Positions 3,060 through 14,474 of a stretch of 14,968 nucleotides of DNA are shown here, piece after piece. Both the position numbers and the translations under genes were made by a program. The stretch is from a virus (lineage: Duplodnaviria > Heunggongvirae > Uroviricota > Caudoviricetes): IMG/VR virus record IMGVR_UViG_2529292834_000017. The stretch is one strand, 5' to 3'. The first letter of the stretch is position 1. The number at the start of each line of letters is the position of its first letter. Below the pieces are notes generated by a model. That model saw only the letters and a list, made by a program, of their open reading frames with translations. It was not told the DNA's origin and ran no database searches.

Positions 3060-3893
3060 ATGAACATCGAAAAAAGCAGATTAATTTCTGAGGCCGCCCC
3101 TCATCTGAACGCCTCTCTGGGCACAATTAACGGTAATGAATTTGCCGCAATTGTCCCGGTTATTTCTGGTCATATAGGCGGGCGTGAAACCAATATTGTT
3201 AGCGCAAAAGCGTTACACAAAGCGTTGGGCGTGGGAAAAGACTTCTCTACATGGATCACTGATCGCATCTCTGAATATGACTTCACCATTGGGCACGATT
3301 ACTCAGTCCATAAAACAATTTCCCCAAATTTGGGGAAAAGCCCGAATGACGCGGCTTACAGCAAGATTAAGCAGTCTGGCAGACCCGGCAAAGACTATCT
3401 GTTAAGTGTCGGAATGGCGAAAGAACTGGCAATGATCGAACGCAATGATCAGGGTCGCGCTATCCGCCGTTATTTCATCCAGTGCGAGAAAGAATTACAG
3501 CGTAGCGTGCCTGAAATCGCCGCCCGCTATCGTCGCCAGCTAAAAGCCCGTATCAGTGCCGCAAACAACTTCAAGCCAATGTGCGATGCGCTGAATATGG
3601 CCCGTGCCGAGATGGGGAAAACGACGCAGCAACACCACTACACAAACGAGAGCAATATGATTTCTCGTATCGTTCTTGGTGGGCTAACTGCTAAGCAGTG
3701 GGCGCGGATAAATGGCTATTCTGGCGAACCTCGCGACCATATGAACGCAGAACAGCTTGAGCACCTCTCATATCTCGAAAGCACCAATATCACGTTAATT
3801 GATATGGGCATGGAATATGAGCAGCGCAAAGGAGAACTCACCCGCCTGTCGCAACGCTGGCTCGCCAAGCGTCTGGAGGCGGTCCATGTTTAA
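3060..3893 (+). CDS. Phage antirepressor-like protein (AntA/AntB-type N-terminal domain)
   Basis: 277-aa ORF with SD ACGGAG upstream. N-terminal segment IVSAKALHKALGVGKDFSTWITDRISEYDFTIGHDY fits the AntA-type pattern (A..LH..LGV...FS.WI..RI..Y.F.EG.D) as I remember it. Product call is moderate; coding call is good. Confidence 0.75.
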   Translation: MNIEKSRLISEAAPHLNASLGTINGNEFAAIVPVISGHIGGRETNIVSAKALHKALGVGKDFSTWITDRISEYDFTIGHDYSVHKTISPNLGKSPNDAAYSKIKQSGRPGKDYLLSVGMAKELAMIERNDQGRAIRRYFIQCEKELQRSVPEIAARYRRQLKARISAANNFKPMCDALNMARAEMGKTTQQHHYTNESNMISRIVLGGLTAKQWARINGYSGEPRDHMNAEQLEHLSYLESTNITLIDMGMEYEQRKGELTRLSQRWLAKRLEAVHV

Positions 3894-4068
3894 GCCGACA
3901 GGAACACCACAACCTCAAAAACGCTACAAAGATGCCCACGGAGCACTCGTTACTGTCGAAAGCGTGTCTCACAACCGAGTGACGTTTTATCGCGACGGGT
4001 ATCAATCGCCATGCGTACAACCGCTGGCACGTTTCATGAAGGAGTTCGCGGAGGTTAACAAATGCTAA
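3886..4068 (+). CDS. Small hypothetical protein (60 aa), coupled to upstream gene
   Basis: ATG at 3886 overlaps the stop of the upstream gene (ATGTTTAA), the same overlap style as the other junctions in this operon. Protein [60 protein letters not shown]. The ORF track extends to 3799 but that would overlap the upstream gene by 95 nt. Confidence 0.5.
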   Translation: MFKPTGTPQPQKRYKDAHGALVTVESVSHNRVTFYRDGYQSPCVQPLARFMKEFAEVNKC

Positions 4069-5129
4069 CCGCCCAGAAGAAGATATTTTCACTGGCTGGT
4101 ATGTCGCCAAAATCCAGCAATATGACAGCAAAGTCAGACATTAATACAGCAGATACAAGCAAAGTTTATCATTTGCTGGTGGTAGGAGCGGATGCCTTAA
4201 CTATGTCAGAAATTACGGTCGATGGTGTTAGCGTTGAGAAGGTCAGCGGCTATGCCAGAGAATTTCTGGTCGTAGATGGCTTTCTCTGCTCGTGTAGTGA
4301 CTCCACAAAAACCTTCGTCCACGCGCGTGACGTTAACGAAATGAGCGCGATGTACTGTGCTTCTGGTTCTTCCAATAGTGAGTTTTCGGAGTCCATAAAA
4401 AAGAGCTTGCCGTTATGCGGCAACACGGTTTATGGTTATAAGGCACCTCATAAAACGGGTGCCGGGATTGGCGTCCTAAAAATTCTGAAGGCGACATATG
4501 ACGCGCCAAGCGTCTTTTTTTATGTCGTAGGTCTGACTCACCCATTTTTTGGGCGTTGGTGTATAATCCAGCGCCTTTGTCAATCAATGGTGGCTCAGGC
4601 GGGGGCTTCTTCGGAAGCGCCGGTATCCTTCAGAGCCGGTTACGCCAACCCTGTCTGGGCTACCACCAGCGAAATTGGCGTTTCCGGTGGTAGCGTAACC
4701 TGCTATCTGAAGGAGGCTGCCACATGCTGGCTACTACCCCTACCCAAAAAACGCAATTTATCTGGATTATCGCCGCAGTTCGCCGCGATTGCCCGACAAT
4801 TACCGCCAAAATTCATCATATTGCTGCCGAGTCTGAACGCGATGCTCGCCGTTCTCTGGTGCGCGATCACGTCTGCTTTTTTGCTGGTCGTATCCGCATG
4901 GAGGTGGCACATGATTAAAACCTACGATGTGCATATGGATCCCCTCGAACGCACAAGCCAGATCATCACACTGACAGAAGTGATTAACGACATTCTGGTG
5001 AGCAACTCTCCCTCACGAGACGAAAGACTGAAGGCGTTACTCGCGATATTGGATCTCGCCGTTCGTGACGTTCATTTCCTGCTGGAAGGTGGCGAAATGC
5101 CAGTAAAAACGGGGGCAACCAATGAATAA
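4062..5129 (+). CDS. Questionable 355-aa ORF, probably not one gene
   Basis: The first ~145 codons (4062 to ~4500) look protein-like. The ORF then reads through a hairpin+U7 terminator (4500-4521), a perfect TATAAT (4562-4567), a UUCG-tetraloop hairpin and a 9-bp hairpin, and the SD/ATG of a better ORF in another frame (4724). Its last 72 codons coincide with the separate gene 4911-5129. An annotation pipeline could still call it as one hypothetical protein. Confidence 0.3.
4381..4403 (+). promoter_or_regulatory. Copy 1 of conserved promoter-proximal motif AGTTTT-N2-GAGTCCATAAAAAA (putative early-operon promoter element)
   Basis: GAGTCCATAAAAAA at 4389-4402 is identical to 10237-10250 (14/14), with matching AGTTTT upstream in both. 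Followed by a perfect palindrome TTGCCG-N5-CGGCAA (4406-4422) and, about 100 nt downstream, a hairpin terminator. Confidence 0.35.
4500..4521 (+). terminator. Intrinsic terminator-like hairpin in the immunity leader (timm-like)
   Basis: GACGC-GCCAA-GCGTC stem-loop followed by TTTTTTT. Immediately preceded by TCTGAAGG (4484-4491), a seqA-like target complementary to 4628-4635. Confidence 0.45.
4530..4567 (+). promoter_or_regulatory. Sigma70-type promoter with perfect -10 TATAAT (4562-4567), weak -35
   Basis: TGTATAAT at 4560-4567. No good -35 hexamer at 17 bp, so activity is uncertain. Confidence 0.35.
4568..4700 (+). ncRNA. Candidate P4 CI / P1 C4-type antisense immunity RNA region (boundaries approximate)
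   Basis: Non-coding leader with a GCTTC-TTCG-GAAGC tetraloop hairpin (4605-4618) and a 9-bp perfect stem GCTACCACC/GGTGGTAGC (4659-4667 with 4686-4694). TCCTTCAGA at 4627-4635 is perfectly complementary to TCTGAAGGA at 4706-4714, which overlaps the SD (AGGAGG 4711-4716) of the Icd-like gene, and 8/8 complementary to 4484-4491. Family membership would need a covariance-model search. Confidence 0.4.
4724..4918 (+). CDS. Icd/Kil-like small protein (cell-division-inhibitor family of P1 icd / P4 kil position)
   Basis: 64-aa ORF with SD AAGGAGG (4706-4712). Motif [10 protein letters not shown]...[25 protein letters not shown] resembles Icd-like proteins as I remember them. Its stop overlaps the next ATG (ATGATTAA). 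Sits immediately downstream of the antisense-RNA-like leader, as in P1 immI and P4 immunity regions. Confidence 0.55.
   Translation: MLATTPTQKTQFIWIIAAVRRDCPTITAKIHHIAAESERDARRSLVRDHVCFFAGRIRMEVAHD
4911..5129 (+). CDS. Small hypothetical protein (72 aa), translationally coupled
   Basis: ATG at 4911 preceded by GGAGGTG; overlaps the upstream stop and the downstream start (ATGAATAA at 5122). Protein [32 protein letters not shown]... Confidence 0.5.
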   Translation: MIKTYDVHMDPLERTSQIITLTEVINDILVSNSPSRDERLKALLAILDLAVRDVHFLLEGGEMPVKTGATNE

Positions 5130-5794: not shown

Positions 5795-6389
5795 TTTCTT
5801 AACTTTCCATGCAGAAGCAACGCCTGGCGGCGTAAACATCATGTACCGCAGCAACGATGGCATGACAGAACGCGTTGAGGCCGTCTCATATATTGATGCC
5901 GTAAATCGTCTGGATGCCGGGGATTATGACGATAAACCAGATGAAGGTATGTCAATACATCTCGCTATTGCCGATGGCGGCAACCAGGGATATTTCGATT
6001 ACACATCACAGCATAACGTCATTATGTGGAGATGGCTGATCGCAACAGTATTCATGCTGGAAATGAGAGAGGAAAACGGCACCGTCAGCATTATTGATGA
6101 CAGTGGCAATCATTCCGTGGTTTCTGTTTATTCCAATGGCATCGTCGCCATGCCGCTGTATCCAGTAGCAGAGCGCCTCGCTATGGCAAACAACATTGAG
6201 GGCGCAATGATCGAGAAATATGGTGTTGATGTCGGAACAAAGAATGCCATCATTTTTTACAGCAACATGTTCGATGTCGAACAGGGAACACTCACTTCGT
6301 TTGGGCGAGAAGTGCTTGCCGATCTTCACAACAGCTTTATTGCCGAACTAAACGAAAACGGCATCCCAGAAGCACCAGTGACGCACTAA
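5787..6389 (+). CDS. Hypothetical protein (200 aa from ATG 5787)
   Basis: ATG at 5787 with GAGGCG upstream, coupled to the previous gene. The ORF track start at 5682 would overlap the upstream gene in another frame. No recognisable motif. Confidence 0.65.
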   Translation: MNNFLTFHAEATPGGVNIMYRSNDGMTERVEAVSYIDAVNRLDAGDYDDKPDEGMSIHLAIADGGNQGYFDYTSQHNVIMWRWLIATVFMLEMREENGTVSIIDDSGNHSVVSVYSNGIVAMPLYPVAERLAMANNIEGAMIEKYGVDVGTKNAIIFYSNMFDVEQGTLTSFGREVLADLHNSFIAELNENGIPEAPVTH

Positions 6390-8753: not shown

Positions 8754-8782
8754 TATAGTCTTTTTACAAGAAGATCGTTTTT

Positions 8783-8795
8783 ACCTGTACCACCT
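8783..8795 (-). repeat. Single iteron-like copy (reverse complement AGGTGGTACAGGT) 30 bp after the primase stop
   Basis: ACCTGTACCACCT on the + strand matches 13/14 of the GGTGGTACAGGTGG repeat clustered at 9809-9911. Confidence 0.45.
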
Positions 8796-8844
8796 ATACC
8801 ATTAACAAACGCATTTCTTCTGGCTGGCTGAGAGGGAACAACCA

Positions 8845-9802: not shown

Positions 9803-9808
9803 ATAAAT

Positions 9809-9911
9809 GGTACAGGTCTGTACAGGTGGGGAGAGGTCATTTTTACCCACCTGTACCACCTGCAGGCCGCGCCACACAAGGGTTTGTGACATGGTGGTAC
9901 AGGTGGTACAG
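9809..9911. repeat. Iteron cluster: at least 3 copies of GGTGGTACAGGTGG in both orientations, including an 11-bp perfect inverted repeat; candidate replication origin / crr-like site
   Basis: GGTACAGGT at 9809-9817; GTACAGGTGGG at 9820-9830 is perfectly inverted to CCCACCTGTAC at 9846-9856 (15-nt spacer); GGTGGTACAGGTGGTACAG at 9893-9911. Non-coding position downstream of the primase-helicase. The origin role is inference by analogy to P4 alpha binding iterons in ori/crr. Confidence 0.5.
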
Positions 9912-10228
9912 CAAAAACAGCGATTTTCTTTATAAGGTATGTTTTGCTCATCTGGCAGACGGAGGTATTCGCTGCGGTTTGGCACATAGCCCAGAACAGC
10001 AAAGAGTTTTACGAGACTTTTGTAAAATCCAGTGTACAAGGGCGTGACGTTTTTGAAGGTGAGCACTACGAAATTTTCGTAGTTCAAAAAATAGCCTCTG
10101 AGATGTTGTTATGCCTGTTCAGCAAACCATCCGCATAGCTGATCGCGAATCAAATTACCAATGGAGCCAGAAGCAAGGGCAGAACTGGAAAGCGCCTGCC
10201 GTGAAGAGTAATGCGACTCCATAAATAT

Positions 10229-10251
10229 AGTTTTTAGAGTCCATAAAAAAA
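10229..10251 (+). promoter_or_regulatory. Copy 2 of conserved motif AGTTTT-N2-GAGTCCATAAAAAA (putative promoter of the cargo operon)
   Basis: 14/14 identity of 10237-10250 with 4389-4402, plus matching upstream AGTTTT. A degenerate third copy GACTCCATAAA is at 10215-10225. Followed within 30 nt by a strong hairpin terminator. Confidence 0.35.
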
Positions 10252-10276
10252 CTGTCAAAACCTGACATACAGAACG

Positions 10277-10309
10277 ATGCCACCAGCTACTGAACGGTGG
10301 CATTTTTTT
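10277..10309 (+). terminator. Rho-independent terminator / attenuator in the leader of the cargo operon
   Basis: 8-bp stem ATGCCACC / GGTGGCAT (10277-10284 with 10296-10303), 11-nt loop, then a run of 6 T. The ORF-track ATG at 10277 lies inside the stem, so the 100-aa ORF 10277-10579 is an over-extension. Confidence 0.55.
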
Positions 10310-10405
10310 GTGCTATTTGTTTCATATTTTGCAATCACAATGATGAATGTTGCGTTTTATGAAACTATAATGACTGTTGTTTTATACAGTTCTAAGGGGG
10401 GCGTT

Positions 10406-10579
10406 ATGGCTATTTCAGTAAAGCCAGTATTGATAAGTGAGAAGCAAATGGAAGCGATAAAGAAAATTCAGGAGGAGCAGCGTAAAAAATCAGAGGTAGG
10501 AGTTGCGCCAACGATCCACGAAATTGCTCGGGGATTAATGGATAAGGCGCTGGCTTACACTTTAACTGGACGTGGGTAA
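10406..10579 (+). CDS. Small hypothetical protein (57 aa), first gene of the cargo operon
   Basis: Strong SD AAGGGGGG 6 nt before the ATG at 10406. Protein MAISVKPVLISEKQMEAIKKIQEEQRKKSEVGVAPTIHEIARGLMDKALAYTLTGRG, charged and helical-looking. Possible small regulator or partner protein; inference only. Confidence 0.6.
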   Translation: MAISVKPVLISEKQMEAIKKIQEEQRKKSEVGVAPTIHEIARGLMDKALAYTLTGRG

Positions 10580-10583
10580 ATTT

Positions 10584-11927
10584 ATGGCTACGTGGCAACA
10601 GGGTATTAATTCTGGTGGTTTTCTGGCTGGCATCGGTGCGCAAAATGAGAATGCGCCAAAGGCAAGCGACATTAACGCAACGCTTGGTCTGATCCGCGAA
10701 AACAATGAACTGGCTCGCTCAGGTGCAAATAACGTTGCTCTGACAGGTCTTCGTGGTCTGGCTGGAGTTGCTGACATTTATAAGCAGCAGCAACAGCAGG
10801 AACGTAAAGCGGCATTCCAGAAAGGTTATGCAGATGCTTATGCGTCCGGTGACAGGGAGCAGATGCGTAATCTTATTACAGCATTCCCAGAAGAGTTTGA
10901 GGAAGTCCGTAAAGGGATGAGTTATGTCGATGATGCTCAAAGGGATGATTATGGCAATCTGGCGCTCAAAGCACAGGTAGCCTCATCGCTTGGTCAGGGC
11001 GCATTTGGCAGGTTCATGATGGATAATGAGCAGGAGATGCGTCGTTTAGGTATCCCTCCAGAAACTATTGCTGAAATGCAGGTTAATGACCCGCAGGGCT
11101 TCCAGCATTTCGCAGGTAATCTGGCGCTGTTTTCTCTCGGTCATGAGAAGTATTTCGATATCAAAGATCAAATGGAAGGTCGTCGACTTGAGCAAGGGCG
11201 ACTGGATGAAAGTATGCGTCAGGCTGACATGGAGAACGCGAGAGGATGGGCAAATATCCAGAACGCTCAACTAGACAGGGCTCAGCGAGCACAAATTCAC
11301 TCAGATGAGATGGGATTGAAGCTAATGGAGCTGGGGCAAAAAGGTAAGCCGTCAGCAGACTTAATTAAGGGATTAAATTCTGACATTACCAATTTTGGCA
11401 AAAATTATAACTCTGTCAGAGCGGCGGCAAACTCTCTGCAAGCCCTTAGCAAGGTAAATACTGGCGCTGCCCAACTTGGGATTATCTTCAACTACATGAA
11501 ATCTCTTGACCCGCAGTCAGTCGTTCGTGAAGGCGAACAGGTTCAGGTAATGCGGTCTGATGGCATATGGGGACAAATCAAAGGATACATAGACCAGCTT
11601 AATGCTGGAAACGGCCTGTCGCAGGAGGCAAAGGATAACATTGTTAACGCCGCAAAAATCAACGCCAATGCTATGGGGCAGCAGTTTAACCAGCAGGTTG
11701 ACGAGTATCTCGATACATATGGAGAAACTATTCCTCAGGGGCTAAGAAAAAGCCTTGAAAGAAGGAAAGCGAAGCTATTTGACGATGTTTCCGGGCAGCC
11801 TACATCACAGGCTGGCACTGGACAGGCAAAAGCGGCAACCGGAGGAATATCAGAAGGCGCAACGGCAACCAACCCTAAAACTGGTCAGAAAATCATTTAC
11901 AGGAACGGAAAATGGCAGCAAATGTAA
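10584..11927 (+). CDS. Hypothetical coiled-coil-rich protein (~448 aa; 451 aa if GTG 10572 is used) with Gly-rich N-terminus
   Basis: Long ORF with coding-like composition. N-terminal Gly/Ala/Asn-rich segment (GINSGGFLAGIGAQNENAPK), then a Q/E/R-rich probable coiled coil (QADMENARGWANIQNAQLDRAQRAQIH). No Walker, nuclease or other catalytic motif seen. Start ambiguous between GTG 10572 (overlapping the upstream stop) and ATG 10584. Confidence 0.8.
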   Translation: MATWQQGINSGGFLAGIGAQNENAPKASDINATLGLIRENNELARSGANNVALTGLRGLAGVADIYKQQQQQERKAAFQKGYADAYASGDREQMRNLITAFPEEFEEVRKGMSYVDDAQRDDYGNLALKAQVASSLGQGAFGRFMMDNEQEMRRLGIPPETIAEMQVNDPQGFQHFAGNLALFSLGHEKYFDIKDQMEGRRLEQGRLDESMRQADMENARGWANIQNAQLDRAQRAQIHSDEMGLKLMELGQKGKPSADLIKGLNSDITNFGKNYNSVRAAANSLQALSKVNTGAAQLGIIFNYMKSLDPQSVVREGEQVQVMRSDGIWGQIKGYIDQLNAGNGLSQEAKDNIVNAAKINANAMGQQFNQQVDEYLDTYGETIPQGLRKSLERRKAKLFDDVSGQPTSQAGTGQAKAATGGISEGATATNPKTGQKIIYRNGKWQQM

Positions 11928-14029
11928 TCTTACCGGAAGGTTTTGTGCTCGATGAACAACCTGATAACTCACAGTTTCCTGATAGTTCACAGCTTCCTGA
12001 TGGTTTTGTGCTTGATGCCCAACCAGAACAGCAGCAATCACCTTTGGTTTCACCAGAGGAAAATTCCAGACAGGAAAATGTTGTTAATAATGCTAACGGT
12101 TTCGACCGTTTTATGTATGGCGTTCTCAGTGGATTGATGGATGTTGGTAAAGGTGTTGGCCTGTTTCAGGATATGACACCAGAAGAGCAAGCCGCAATTC
12201 AGTCTCTACAGCAGAAGTTAGCGGCAAAACCATCAACCGCACAAGATGTTGGTGAGTTCGTTGGACAAGCAGCGCCATTTGTTAGTGGTGGTGGGATTAT
12301 TTCTCAGGTTCCCAAAGGGGCGGCAAGACTGGCTGCCGCCGCAGGGCTTGGTGCTGGAGAAGGGGCTATTGTAGCCAATGGAACAAATAGCGATGTTGCT
12401 TCCGGCGCTGCTATTGGCGCTGTGGCTGGCCCTGTAGCCGAACTTGCTGGCCCTGCAATTAATAAAATAGCTGGGAAATTAACCAAGAAGAATGTTTCTT
12501 CGATTCCAGATATTGAGGGGATTACTCCTGCCGAAGAGAAAATTCGTAAGTTATCTGCACAAGGCAACCCAAATCTTGCCTCTTCGCTTGAAGGGCTAGA
12601 TCTAAAACCTCAGAAAGAAATTGTTGAGGCTGCAAATAGGCTTCATGTTGATTCAGTTCTTCCTTCTCATTTATCAGGAAATGAGCAATACCAAGCTGTA
12701 GAGCAAGCCCTAAAGTCACGGACAGGATCAGCGTTAAAAGCTCAAGAAGATAAAGCAATAAGCGAATTAGCCTCTAGTGCTGGCAAGATAATCGATGATG
12801 TTGCTGGTGCGCCAGATGCGTTAGCTATGAGCGAAAAATATATTTATCAGATAAATAGTAGAATGGAAGCACTAAAAAACCGTAGTGATCAGTTATATAA
12901 ACGTGTTGATTCCGCTCTATCACCAAGAACAAAAGTCGAAGCAAATAACACAAGCACTATGCTGGAAAAAATCGCTGATGATTTAGGAGGGTGGGATAAT
13001 CTTGACCCAATAGAAAAGCGAGTTTTTACAGCAATAAACCCCGGCCCAGATAGCATCCTAACGTATGCAAATTTAAACAGGCAAAGGCGTTTAGTTGGTG
13101 ATGCCCTAAATAAAAAGCAGGGGCCATACAAAGATGCTGATAAAGAAGCGCTATCAAGACTATATGGAGCTTTAGCTGAAGACCAAAAATCTGTCTTATC
13201 CAATACTGGATACTTGCGAGATTTCGAAGTCGCACAACGCCTTGTAGCTATGAGAAAAAACTTAGAAAGGCAAATGGTAAATCTTCGCGGGAAAACACTT
13301 AATGGGGATATAGCGTATAAAGTAACGAATTCTCTTCAATCTATGGCAAAAGGTGATGCGAGAGGGTTTCGTGAGATTATGCAAAATACTCCATCAAGAA
13401 CATTGCGAAGGGAGCTAGTAGGAACAGCATTAAGAGATATGCTTTCCTCTGGGAAGCGTGGGGCCGACTTTAATCCATCTGGCTTCGCAGATTGGTGGCA
13501 AAACTTGCAACACAGTGGACAGCTAAAGACTTTGGCTGAACATTTGCCAAAAGAAACAATGAGCGGACTATATGATGTATACAAAGTTGCCAGAGCAATA
13601 AAAAATGCTAAAGCGCATGAAATATCTACTGGTAAGCTGAATGAGTTTGTAAACAGATTTAATCGGGTAACAGCTCCATACGAACTAGCAGCAAAACACA
13701 TTCAAAAAATAGGCACGATGGTAGGCGCTCATTTTGGATCGCTTGGAGCCATTGCTGGGGCTGATATTGGAGCAAGATTGGCGAGTAAAGCTCGATTAGC
13801 TGGTGGAGCAGGGGCGGCTGATGCTGCGGATAAATTAATTGCCTCGCCAGCCTTCCAGAGCGCAGTAAAAAATCTACACGGAAAAGCGCCTGGGCACATT
13901 GTTGATTCACGTATCAGGCGCTCCCCTCAATGGAAGAGTTTTTTTAACTCTCTTCCTGAACAGGAAAAACGGACCATCGCCAGACTGGGCATCATTACTT
14001 GGCTATCTAATGATCCAGATAATGACTAG
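11912..14029 (+). CDS. Hypothetical 705-aa protein with N-terminal tandem repeat and Gly/Ala-rich amphipathic segments
   Basis: ATG at 11912 with AGGAA 6 nt upstream; overlaps the end of the upstream gene by 16 nt. N-terminus has a tandem repeat LPEGFVLDEQP / LPDGFVLDAQP. Gly/Ala-rich stretches at residues ~125-180 (AARLAAAAGLGAGEGAIVANG...AIGAVAGPVAELAGPAINKIAGKL) and near the C-terminus (GSLGAIAGADIGARLASKARLAGGAGAADAADKLIASPA). No enzymatic motif recognised. GC content drops sharply after ~12500. Confidence 0.85.
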   Translation: MAANVILPEGFVLDEQPDNSQFPDSSQLPDGFVLDAQPEQQQSPLVSPEENSRQENVVNNANGFDRFMYGVLSGLMDVGKGVGLFQDMTPEEQAAIQSLQQKLAAKPSTAQDVGEFVGQAAPFVSGGGIISQVPKGAARLAAAAGLGAGEGAIVANGTNSDVASGAAIGAVAGPVAELAGPAINKIAGKLTKKNVSSIPDIEGITPAEEKIRKLSAQGNPNLASSLEGLDLKPQKEIVEAANRLHVDSVLPSHLSGNEQYQAVEQALKSRTGSALKAQEDKAISELASSAGKIIDDVAGAPDALAMSEKYIYQINSRMEALKNRSDQLYKRVDSALSPRTKVEANNTSTMLEKIADDLGGWDNLDPIEKRVFTAINPGPDSILTYANLNRQRRLVGDALNKKQGPYKDADKEALSRLYGALAEDQKSVLSNTGYLRDFEVAQRLVAMRKNLERQMVNLRGKTLNGDIAYKVTNSLQSMAKGDARGFREIMQNTPSRTLRRELVGTALRDMLSSGKRGADFNPSGFADWWQNLQHSGQLKTLAEHLPKETMSGLYDVYKVARAIKNAKAHEISTGKLNEFVNRFNRVTAPYELAAKHIQKIGTMVGAHFGSLGAIAGADIGARLASKARLAGGAGAADAADKLIASPAFQSAVKNLHGKAPGHIVDSRIRRSPQWKSFFNSLPEQEKRTIARLGIITWLSNDPDND

Positions 14030-14048: not shown

Positions 14049-14474
14049 TCAATCTTTATTCTTTGAAATAGAGTCATTGATCTTTTCGAAACACCAATGA
14101 AATCCACAAAAGAGAGCTACACCAATATAACAATACAAAACTATCAACCACCTTTCAGTGTCCGAAGGGTAAAAAACATCAATTACATAAGCAACACCAA
14201 TTGGTATTAATGCTAGTAATAACATCGACACAGGACGTACAAACTTCTGAACTATATCAATTTTATAGAACCACAAGGCGGTATGTTTAATGATATAAGT
14301 AAAGATGGCTGCGCCAATAATGGCAAAAAACACCATCGATAAAGTCGGGTATAACTTTGCGACAATTAAACCCAACAAAATAATTATAACTGCCTGCCCC
14401 CTCACACCAACCCTCCCTTTAGCTTTGTTTAGAATGGCAATCATCATATATCCAAGACATGGCATTTGGTACAT
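14049..14474 (-). CDS. Small integral membrane protein (141 aa, ~4 predicted TM helices), low GC
   Basis: Minus-strand ORF convergent with the 705-aa gene. Hydrophobic stretches VIIILLGLIVAKLYPTLSMVFFAIIGAAIFTYII, VSMLLLALIPIGVAYVIDVF and LIVLYCYIGVALFCGF. Very AT-rich codon usage. No clear SD at any of the candidate starts (14474, 14465, 14447). Confidence 0.65.
   Translation of the reverse strand: MYQMPCLGYMMIAILNKAKGRVGVRGQAVIIILLGLIVAKLYPTLSMVFFAIIGAAIFTYIIKHTALWFYKIDIVQKFVRPVSMLLLALIPIGVAYVIDVFYPSDTERWLIVLYCYIGVALFCGFHWCFEKINDSISKNKD

Follow-up and report, generated by a model that had tools for sequence, protein, structure and literature searches.

What is the function of a short sequence that occurs twice, almost unchanged, in a single phage satellite? 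The question is raised by a 14,968-nucleotide stretch of viral DNA (IMG/VR virus record IMGVR_UViG_2529292834_000017; Caudoviricetes), hereafter the window, which is an integrative island in the yicC-dinD interval of Escherichia coli. Its repeated 22-base motif, AGTTTTnnGAGTCCATAAAAAA, is found at 4381-4402, ahead of the immunity/replication operon, and at 10229-10250, ahead of an operon for phage ejection proteins. The original prediction treated the motif as a promoter-proximal signal followed at each site by a leader terminator, which would place both operons under one attenuation or antitermination programme. Comparison with relatives suggests a different answer, namely that the motif is probably a mimic of a helper phage pac site, taken from within the gene for the small terminase subunit (TerS; gene terS). 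The island itself is a phage-inducible chromosomal island (PICI) of the EcCIMP1 type, given the shared gene order and the near-identical regulatory and replication modules, and experiments have demonstrated induction and transduction of EcCIMP1 by Kapi1, a P22-like phage (PMC11773190).

Both copies contain the exact 14-mer GAGTCCATAAAAAA on the + strand (4389-4402 and 10237-10250), as originally reported, and with the upstream AGTTTT included the two 22-mers agree at 20 of 22 positions. The 14-mer was stated to be very unlikely to recur by chance; however, first-order Markov shuffles of the window contain an exact 14-mer direct repeat in 40% of cases (mean 0.81 pairs), and a 22-mer repeat with at most two mismatches in 2%; of the two, only the 22-mer is unusual. 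The significance of the motif rests on comparison with relatives and not on odds within the window.

A scan of viral contigs with the exact pattern AGTWTTNNGAGTCCATAAAAAA returned at least 120 loci, mostly within one 146-amino-acid open reading frame (ORF), which reads ...NKWKLDYP(K/E)FSESIKKGK... and is followed by the large terminase subunit (TerL) and a P22-type portal. This ORF is the TerS of phage CUS-3 (99-100% identity; phrog_309), and the 22-mer is identical to nucleotides (nt) 143-164, codons 48-55, of the CUS-3-type terS gene. Copies within a repeated coding sequence had been named in advance as evidence against a regulatory motif, and in a sense this is what the scan found, with most matches in phage terS. 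Since the scan is biased toward the motif by design, constraint was measured on terS genes found by a protein pattern (53 representatives with less than 80% amino-acid identity to one another). Third-position conservation is 0.3-0.6 along the gene and 0.87, 0.85, 1.00, 0.96 and 0.73 at codons 49, 51, 52, 53 and 54, respectively; values of 0.85-1.00 are confined to codons 49 and 51-53. The codons used within the motif are also unusual for the same genes: serine is TCC in 37/37 cases (10% of serine codons elsewhere), alanine GCC in 15/15 (23%), isoleucine ATA in 25/27 (21%), leucine CTA or TTA in 21/21 (24%) and glutamate GAG in 32/32 (51%). The control peptide IFWLKN is equally conserved in TerS, yet its synonymous sites vary freely. 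Near-invariant synonymous sites in one stretch and free ones in the control thus point to a short nucleotide-level element in the terS family, TTT-nnn-SAG-KCC-nTA-AAA, of which the window motif is a perfect copy. Such constraint indicates a nucleic-acid site in terS, but does not itself make the site pac. A natural variant is present in the terS of phage vB_EcoP-720R6 (L209 16151), which reads GAGTCTATAAAA, with TCT instead of the otherwise invariant TCC.

The surroundings of the motif in satellites also resemble packaging sites. The pac site of P22, GAAGATTTATCTGAAGTCGTTA, lies in gene 3 and is annotated at NC_002371 4-25. Next to copy 1 there is an inverted terS fragment of the P22/Louie type (Table 1), whose alignment to Louie terS (4316-4210, - strand) begins exactly at the P22-pac-homologous base, and the AAGG... 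17-mer of its GAAGGTTTTTGTGGAGTCACTA differs at one position from the published P22 pseudo-pac consensus, which was taken from PMC10996546. With at most one mismatch and no more than 150 nt upstream of the motif, this consensus occurs in 16 of 48 unique satellite contexts (three exact), against a background of 0.02 per 150 nt. Loci L003 (a related island, strain EC21Z-137) and L211 have a direct P22-pac-like sequence, GAAGATTT(T/A)TTAGGGGTCGTTACGCGAG, 12 nt upstream of the motif. When a 70-nt segment of L003 was compared with a phage database, the only matches were P22-type terS with nt 11-41, individually weak (E = 7), and CUS-3 terS with nt 43-69 (E = 4e-3). Other lineages carry units such as GAGTTTCGGGACAAGTACGCGCGA, which match the Sf6/Kapi1 terS codons EDFRDKYA at 19/24 nt, and Sf6-type units (GAGTTTCGnGACMAGTACGCGCGA) lie upstream of the motif in satellite loci L027, L010, L268 and L271-L277. 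In genomes chosen to represent nine Enterobacterales genera, the motif follows tandem arrays of such units and is invariably the unit closest to the -35. The Sf6-type unit is absent from both the window and EcCIMP1. Kapi1 has an Sf6-type TerS and no copy of the motif, which rules this phage out as the motif's source.

In each of the terS genes concerned, the P22 pac site, the Sf6-type segment or the CUS-3 motif falls within a stretch coding for ...E(D/F)x(S/D)(E/D)..., which hints at a common pac position across the three TerS types. Like P22 pac (22 bp in gene 3), the motif would be a short recognition sequence inside the terS coding region, occupying the corresponding ...E(D/F)x(S/D)E... segment in another TerS type. 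It differs from P22 pac in sequence and in belonging to the CUS-3-type TerS (phrog_309), and the present case is built on synonymous constraint and on mimicry by satellites.

The explanation closest to the original prediction is that the motif is a promoter-associated element (an UP element or a site for a satellite or helper regulator) that co-controls the immunity/replication and ejection operons, with the hairpins as leader attenuators. This is unlikely, although copy 1 fits it well. Copy 1 ends 4 nt upstream of the -35 hexamer TTGCCG of a homologue of the P4 promoter P_LE and occupies -62 to -41, counted from the 5' end of isrK. The A-tract of copy 1 extends into the UP-like region of this promoter, and its AAAAAAGAG fits the UP proximal-subsite consensus AAAAAARNR. 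Furthermore, the distance from motif to -35 is exactly 4 nt in every P_LE-linked lineage (28 unique sequences), and the terminator of isrK does belong to a leader. For copy 1, both the predicted proximity to a promoter and the hairpin as a leader ahead of the first gene (the isrK/C4 leader) are borne out. As to an UP element, the A-tract of copy 1 fits an A/T-rich region from -38 to -59 and is shared with promoters that lack the motif; the GAGTCC part is not A/T-rich, and at copy 2 no promoter lies at that spacing. Promoters were sampled by their -10/isrK start, an anchor without bias toward the motif, and gave 47 unique promoter regions. Of these, 28 (class I satellite promoters) carry the motif, and 27 of the 28 have GAGTCCAT intact despite differences in the spacer, in the two 'nn' bases and in all upstream sequence. 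The promoter hexamers are conserved as well. The other 19 P_LE-type promoters lack GAGTCCAT but have ACAAAAAGGGCTTGC and keep the A-tract, GGGC and -35. Because these 19 share ACAAAAAGGGCTTGC, the A-tract, GGGC and -35 belong to the promoter, and AGTTTTnnGAGTCCAT is an add-on that the promoter does not need. As the motif is also missing upstream of P4 P_LE, it is not part of the conserved promoter of this family.

Copy 2 fits a promoter-associated role poorly. It is non-coding, with a TAG stop directly 5' of the motif in the terS frame, and has origin iterons on one side and the terminator preceding the ejection-gene operon on the other. A hairpin with a U-run does lie downstream of each copy, as predicted (4500-4521, the isrK terminator; 10277-10309, a strong terminator), and the second has a 9-bp GC-rich stem with a folding energy (dG) of -17.3 kcal/mol and z = -4.7. 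In a diverged relative, L112, the equivalent stem is GCCACC/GGTGGC with a different loop. No sigma-70-like promoter hexamers were found in the 26 nt between copy 2 and its hairpin (10251-10276), and TATAAT, the conserved -10 of the predicted ejection-operon promoter, lies downstream of the hairpin, so neither the promoter proximity nor the leader position claimed for copy 2 holds. Given that position, the hairpin is most simply read as the probable end of the replication operon.

In addition, copy 2 is kept in L112 though both flanks have changed, and the copies at L112:9843 and in L210 have no P_LE-type promoter beside them. Conversely, the inverted repeat, terminator, promoter and small ORF of the copy-2 region all occur in L211 but the motif does not, and it cannot therefore be an obligatory part of a copy-2 attenuator unit. 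With promoter-less copies in L112 and L210 and a motif-less terminator/promoter module in L211, the motif is a separable module, tied to neither promoter nor terminator. This separability, together with the copy-2 hairpin upstream of the operon's -10, speaks against a shared attenuation or antitermination programme. A promoter-associated role also leaves unexplained the identity to a synonymously constrained terS segment and the linkage to P22-pac-like sequences.

Mimicry of a helper pac site would account for the motif's identity to terS, the synonymous constraint, the conservation in non-coding DNA, the linkage to P22- and Sf6-type units and the independence from promoter and terminator, and is for these reasons the reading preferred here. 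The proposed mechanism has three steps. (i) The CUS-3-type terS segment TTT-nnn-GAG-TCC-ATA-AAA-AAG would most likely be the pac that is bound by this TerS type and starts headful packaging, given its nucleotide-level constraint and the position of the P22 pac, also inside terS. (ii) The satellite would carry a piece of helper-phage DNA as a cis-acting packaging signal, in two direct copies. (iii) During lytic growth of a P22-like helper, TerS/TerL would recognise the sites on replicated island DNA and package the island. We infer the pac identity of the terS element, the binding of TerS to the satellite copies and the start of packaging there. A second terS type is represented by the inverted fragment adjoining copy 1, which starts at the P22-pac-equivalent position. 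We take the coincidence of the copy 1 A-tract with the UP-like A-tract to mark a fusion point and not to reveal what the motif does.

The island would need a borrowed signal because no terminase gene was found, either as a Pfam or PHROGs match among the window ORFs scanned or in the PGAP annotation of the whole island. EcCIMP1 likewise has no terminase genes, its transfer rate is very low, its packaging mechanism is stated to be unknown, and its authors suggest that other helpers are used (PMC11773190). Both motif copies are present in EcCIMP1 (L214), copy 2 with one mismatch. Since Kapi1 has an Sf6-type TerS and neither EcCIMP1 nor the window has an Sf6-type unit, this mismatch would fit the very low transfer of EcCIMP1.

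Several points weigh against pac mimicry. Kapi1, the only helper tested with EcCIMP1, has an Sf6-type and not a CUS-3-type TerS, and the mismatch in EcCIMP1 copy 2 is a T-to-A change in the conserved ATA. In the window lineage the P22-type terS fragment is inverted relative to the motif. The assignment of terS codons 48-55 as a CUS-3-type pac derives from sequence comparison. Furthermore, the core G-nCC-nTA-AAA is kept in terS genes whose contigs differ greatly in composition, and the phrog_309-type TerS family includes Vibrio and Acinetobacter phages; this spread is broader than is usually thought for pac sites, and another nucleic-acid-level function of the terS element is possible. Finally, a pure packaging site would not need the invariant 4-nt spacing to the -35.

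This fixed spacing keeps alive the weaker promoter-element explanation and also a further alternative, in which the motif is a TerS sensor or decoy. TerS bound at -62 to -41 would alter the immunity promoter and link derepression to late expression of the helper, or the copies would titrate TerS. All the evidence for terS mimicry applies equally to this alternative, and the juxtaposition with the -35 across lineages is otherwise unexplained. It is nevertheless distinctly unlikely, as copies without a promoter exist, and EcCIMP1 did not lower Kapi1 titres (PMC11773190), although this last point is weak given the different TerS type of Kapi1.

The motif copies might instead be relics or recombination joints, that is, terS-derived stretches left by, or promoting, exchange between satellites and phages and without a cis function. 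The motif does lie at module boundaries, with flanks that change at its 5' edge, and at L210 8001-8066 (E. coli RMDEC465) a copy-1-type upstream flank, which includes the inverted terS fragment, is joined exactly at the motif to a copy-2-type downstream flank, past the replication genes of a different satellite. This junction is evidence of motif copies recombining with each other or moving as a cassette. A non-coding relic should decay, yet GAGTCCAT is kept in 27 of the 28 unique lineages and in at least nine genera while its neighbours vary, and different satellites assemble ordered arrays of several terS-type units, all of which makes an origin as mere relics very improbable. An RNA-level element, that is, a site in terS mRNA and in the 3' regions of satellite operons for a small RNA, an RNase or a ribosome-pausing signal, is extremely unlikely. 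In its favour, both copies lie on the strand that is transcribed, past operons of the + strand and ahead of terminators; the codons ATA, CTA and TTA are rare, and the slippery heptamer A-AAA-AAG occurs within ATA-AAA-AAG. Against it, many family members are not slippery past the conserved core (a -1 frameshift there was dropped), no complementary partner with up to two mismatches occurs in the window, IsrK and C4 show by eye only trivial A/U complementarity to the motif (small RNA pairing with either was likewise dropped), the constraint is limited to about six codons, and the partner units (P22 pac) are already known to act as DNA.

An extension of pac mimicry can also be envisaged, in which the motif is the universal pac core of a TerS family spread over many phage groups (phrog_309) and the arrays of EcCIMP1-type satellites hold one unit per TerS type of P22-like phages and so ride any helper, while the last unit, at the -35, lets TerS flip the immunity switch and serves as packaging signal and sensor in one. 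This full scheme has a low probability.

Satellites that carry packaging sites of their helpers include P4 with the P2 cos site, the cos-type E. coli PICIs with Rpp, SaPIbov5 with a phage cos site and the phage-inducible chromosomal island-like element (PLE) with a pac site. Like these elements, the island is without full packaging machinery, and a cis site would let a terminase package it. The present case differs in that the sites would be of the pac type and derived from inside terS, with arrays of up to three P22-like TerS specificities; the window has two dispersed copies, and no redirecting protein (Rpp, TerS_S) is evident. Compared with EcCIMP1, the window island has the integrase, AlpA-type helix-turn-helix (HTH) protein, AntA, DUF4222, 'ash' ORF, primase, ejection homologues and PerC in the same order, but EcCIMP1 lies at thrW-proA, and the window island differs further in its DUF5906 primase and in the shorter length of its ejection module. 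Neither the motif nor a packaging site is described in the EcCIMP1 paper (Pick, Stadel and Raivio, ISME J 2025, PMC11773190). A full-text literature search for the 14-mer gave no match. As far as the searchable literature shows, the new elements are (i) the specific site, (ii) its origin inside terS with extreme synonymous constraint across a large TerS family, and (iii) its combination into arrays with units for other TerS types, in an island family that is common in E. coli and had no explanation for its packaging.

EcCIMP1-type islands are common: counting the copy-2 block alone, about 500 of 5,426 complete E. coli genomes are positive. Virulence regulators (PerC) and superinfection immunity are among the traits that these islands carry. 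If the proposal is true, a terS-derived pac mimic would provide a concrete packaging mechanism for these islands, and helper range would be predictable from the unit types that an island carries, which the poor transfer by Kapi1 matches. The extreme synonymous constraint also singles out a candidate for the pac sequence of a large TerS family without a mapped site, and a general route to pac sites is suggested, namely through terS segments copied by satellites.

Table 1. Features of the window discussed in the text, with positions counted from its first nucleotide.
Feature	Position	Strand	Details
Inverted P22/Louie-type terS fragment	4210..4316	-	107 bp, terS nt 268-374, ~85% identity
P22-pac-equivalent 22-mer	4295..4316	-	GAAGGTTTTTGTGGAGTCACTA; homology to P22 pac
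Motif copy 1	4381..4402	+	AGTTTTCGGAGTCCATAAAAAA; terS-derived CUS-3-type unit, candidate pac mimic
P4 P_LE-type sigma-70 promoter	4407..4436	+	TTGCCG 4407-4412, 18-nt spacer, TATGGT 4431-4436
isrK-type leader RNA	4443..4520	+	Rfam RF01394, 60.5 bits (gathering score 50)
isrK intrinsic terminator	stem 4500-4514, T-run to 4521	+	First 'leader terminator' of the original prediction
C4 / P4-CI-type antisense immunity RNA	4583..4670	+	Rfam RF01695, 79.9 bits (gathering score 45)
Degenerate motif-like units	10004..10093	+	GAGTTTTACGAGACTTTTGTAAAA, and GAAGGTGAG...AATTTTCGTAGTTCAAAAAATA
Partial motif copy	10215..10226	+	GACTCCATAAAT; 22 bp upstream of copy 2 core
Motif copy 2	10229..10250	+	AGTTTTTAGAGTCCATAAAAAA; non-coding
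Intrinsic terminator	10277..10309	+	ATGCCACC, 11-nt loop, GGTGGCAT, then T7
Ejection-operon promoter -10 (predicted)	10366-10371	+	TATAAT; kept in L112 and L211 while surroundings diverge
Operator-like inverted repeat	10373-10390	+	ACTGT-N8-ACAGT; kept in L112 and L211
57-amino-acid ORF	10406-10579	+	First of 'cargo' operon
P22 gp20-type ejection protein	10584-11927	+	75% amino-acid identity to Kapi1_057
gp16-type protein	11912-14029	+	41% amino-acid identity to Kapi1_058

The two full copies of the motif are accompanied by less perfect ones (Table 1). The partial copy beside copy 2 reads GACACCATAAA in relatives and is conserved in L101, L112, L118, L212 and L214, and the GAAGGTGAG...AATTTTCGTAGTTCAAAAAATA unit has 77% identity to copy 1; the degenerate units are possibly a decayed array. 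A third motif-like sequence, CAGTCCATAAAACA, with two mismatches, lies at 3304-3317 (+) within the antA gene, with a palindrome after it, and is kept in L003 and EcCIMP1. It is probably a coincidence, since it is coding and about 0.07 chance matches are expected by our own estimate for the 12-mer core with at most one mismatch.

Further candidate functions for the motif were considered and dropped. Minus-strand terminators (hairpin, T-run and ATGGACTC at each copy) fold no better than shuffles (z -0.4 and -0.9), and the hairpin at copy 1 is not kept in L003. The minus-strand mini-ORFs that begin with MDSEN and MDSKN have no ribosome-binding site and no similarity past five codons. Neither an Ogr/Delta-type site (TGT-N12-ACA) nor the integration host factor consensus fits the motif by eye. 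The copies were also considered as attL/attR-like repeats or target duplications around a 5.8-kb insert; core replication genes lie between them, and relatives have single copies.

The island comprises, in order, an integrase, an AlpA-type HTH protein, an AntA antirepressor, DUF4222, the 'ash family' ORF, small ORFs and a P4-type primase, followed by two genes of unknown function, the 57-amino-acid ORF and the homologues of the P22 gp20- and gp16-type ejection proteins. In L003, an int-alpA RNA (Rfam, 62 bits) lies at 5941-6007 between int and the HTH gene; the window gave no match to this RNA at E up to 1 and has a 216-amino-acid ORF in that place. The leader region resembles the P4 P_LE/CI RNA leader and the Salmonella IsrK locus in promoter hexamers and spacing, in the isrK-type leader with its terminator and in the C4/CI RNA, all in the same order. 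TTGCCG-18-TATGGT of the window matches TTGCCT-18-TATAGT of P4 in position relative to isrK, and the P4 -10 is annotated in X02534.

A 355-amino-acid ORF, annotated by PGAP as an 'ash family protein' (4062-5129, + strand), spans the pac-like region, the P_LE-type promoter, isrK and C4. It starts 7 nt past the previous gene and overlaps the next gene, and in none of the satellite lineages examined is its frame interrupted over 250-355 codons. The match to Pfam Phage_ASH (residues 124-232, nt ~4431-4757) is essentially the translated isrK and C4 RNA genes. This ORF is either an annotation artefact or a selected leader translation that, for example, overrides the termination of transcription started upstream. 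Past the primase region, clusters of GGTACAGGT(GG) iterons, direct and inverted, occur at 9808-9920 and 8779-8801 and are probably the replication origin of the island together with a second cis site, an arrangement like that of P4 ori/crr. In L211 a different iteron (TAGGGAT) lies in the same place.

The 'cargo' operon named in the original prediction encodes homologues of the P22-type ejection proteins gp20 and gp16, not arbitrary accessory genes. This assignment is based on matches to Pfam Inj_translocase (2.5e-73) and PHROGs 917 and 6704/770, and the PGAP annotation agrees on the operon (10406..14029); the gp20-type gene has 85-89% nucleotide identity to Kapi1_057 in two stretches. The 57-amino-acid ORF (MAISVKPVLISEKQMEAIKKIQEE...) has the look of a ribbon-helix-helix protein and had no library match. 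As this ORF follows an inverted repeat, ACTGT-N8-ACAGT, placed just past the -10, the arrangement suggests that the ejection operon is autorepressed and not controlled by antitermination. Ejection modules are also present at L212 8216-13052 and at L214 12598-17944 (EcCIMP1). Between the small ORF and the ejection protein, E. coli 042 and EcCIMP1 have two extra genes, DUF2824 and another one, which are possibly gp14- and gp7-like. The satellite ejection proteins might explain the reported superinfection immunity of EcCIMP1 or might serve as the satellite's own injection proteins. Right past the gp16 homologue, a convergent ORF (14049-14474, - strand) encodes a 141-amino-acid predicted membrane protein, with a Bax1-I match below the Pfam threshold. 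It lies about where P22 has sieA, and is a candidate superinfection-exclusion gene.

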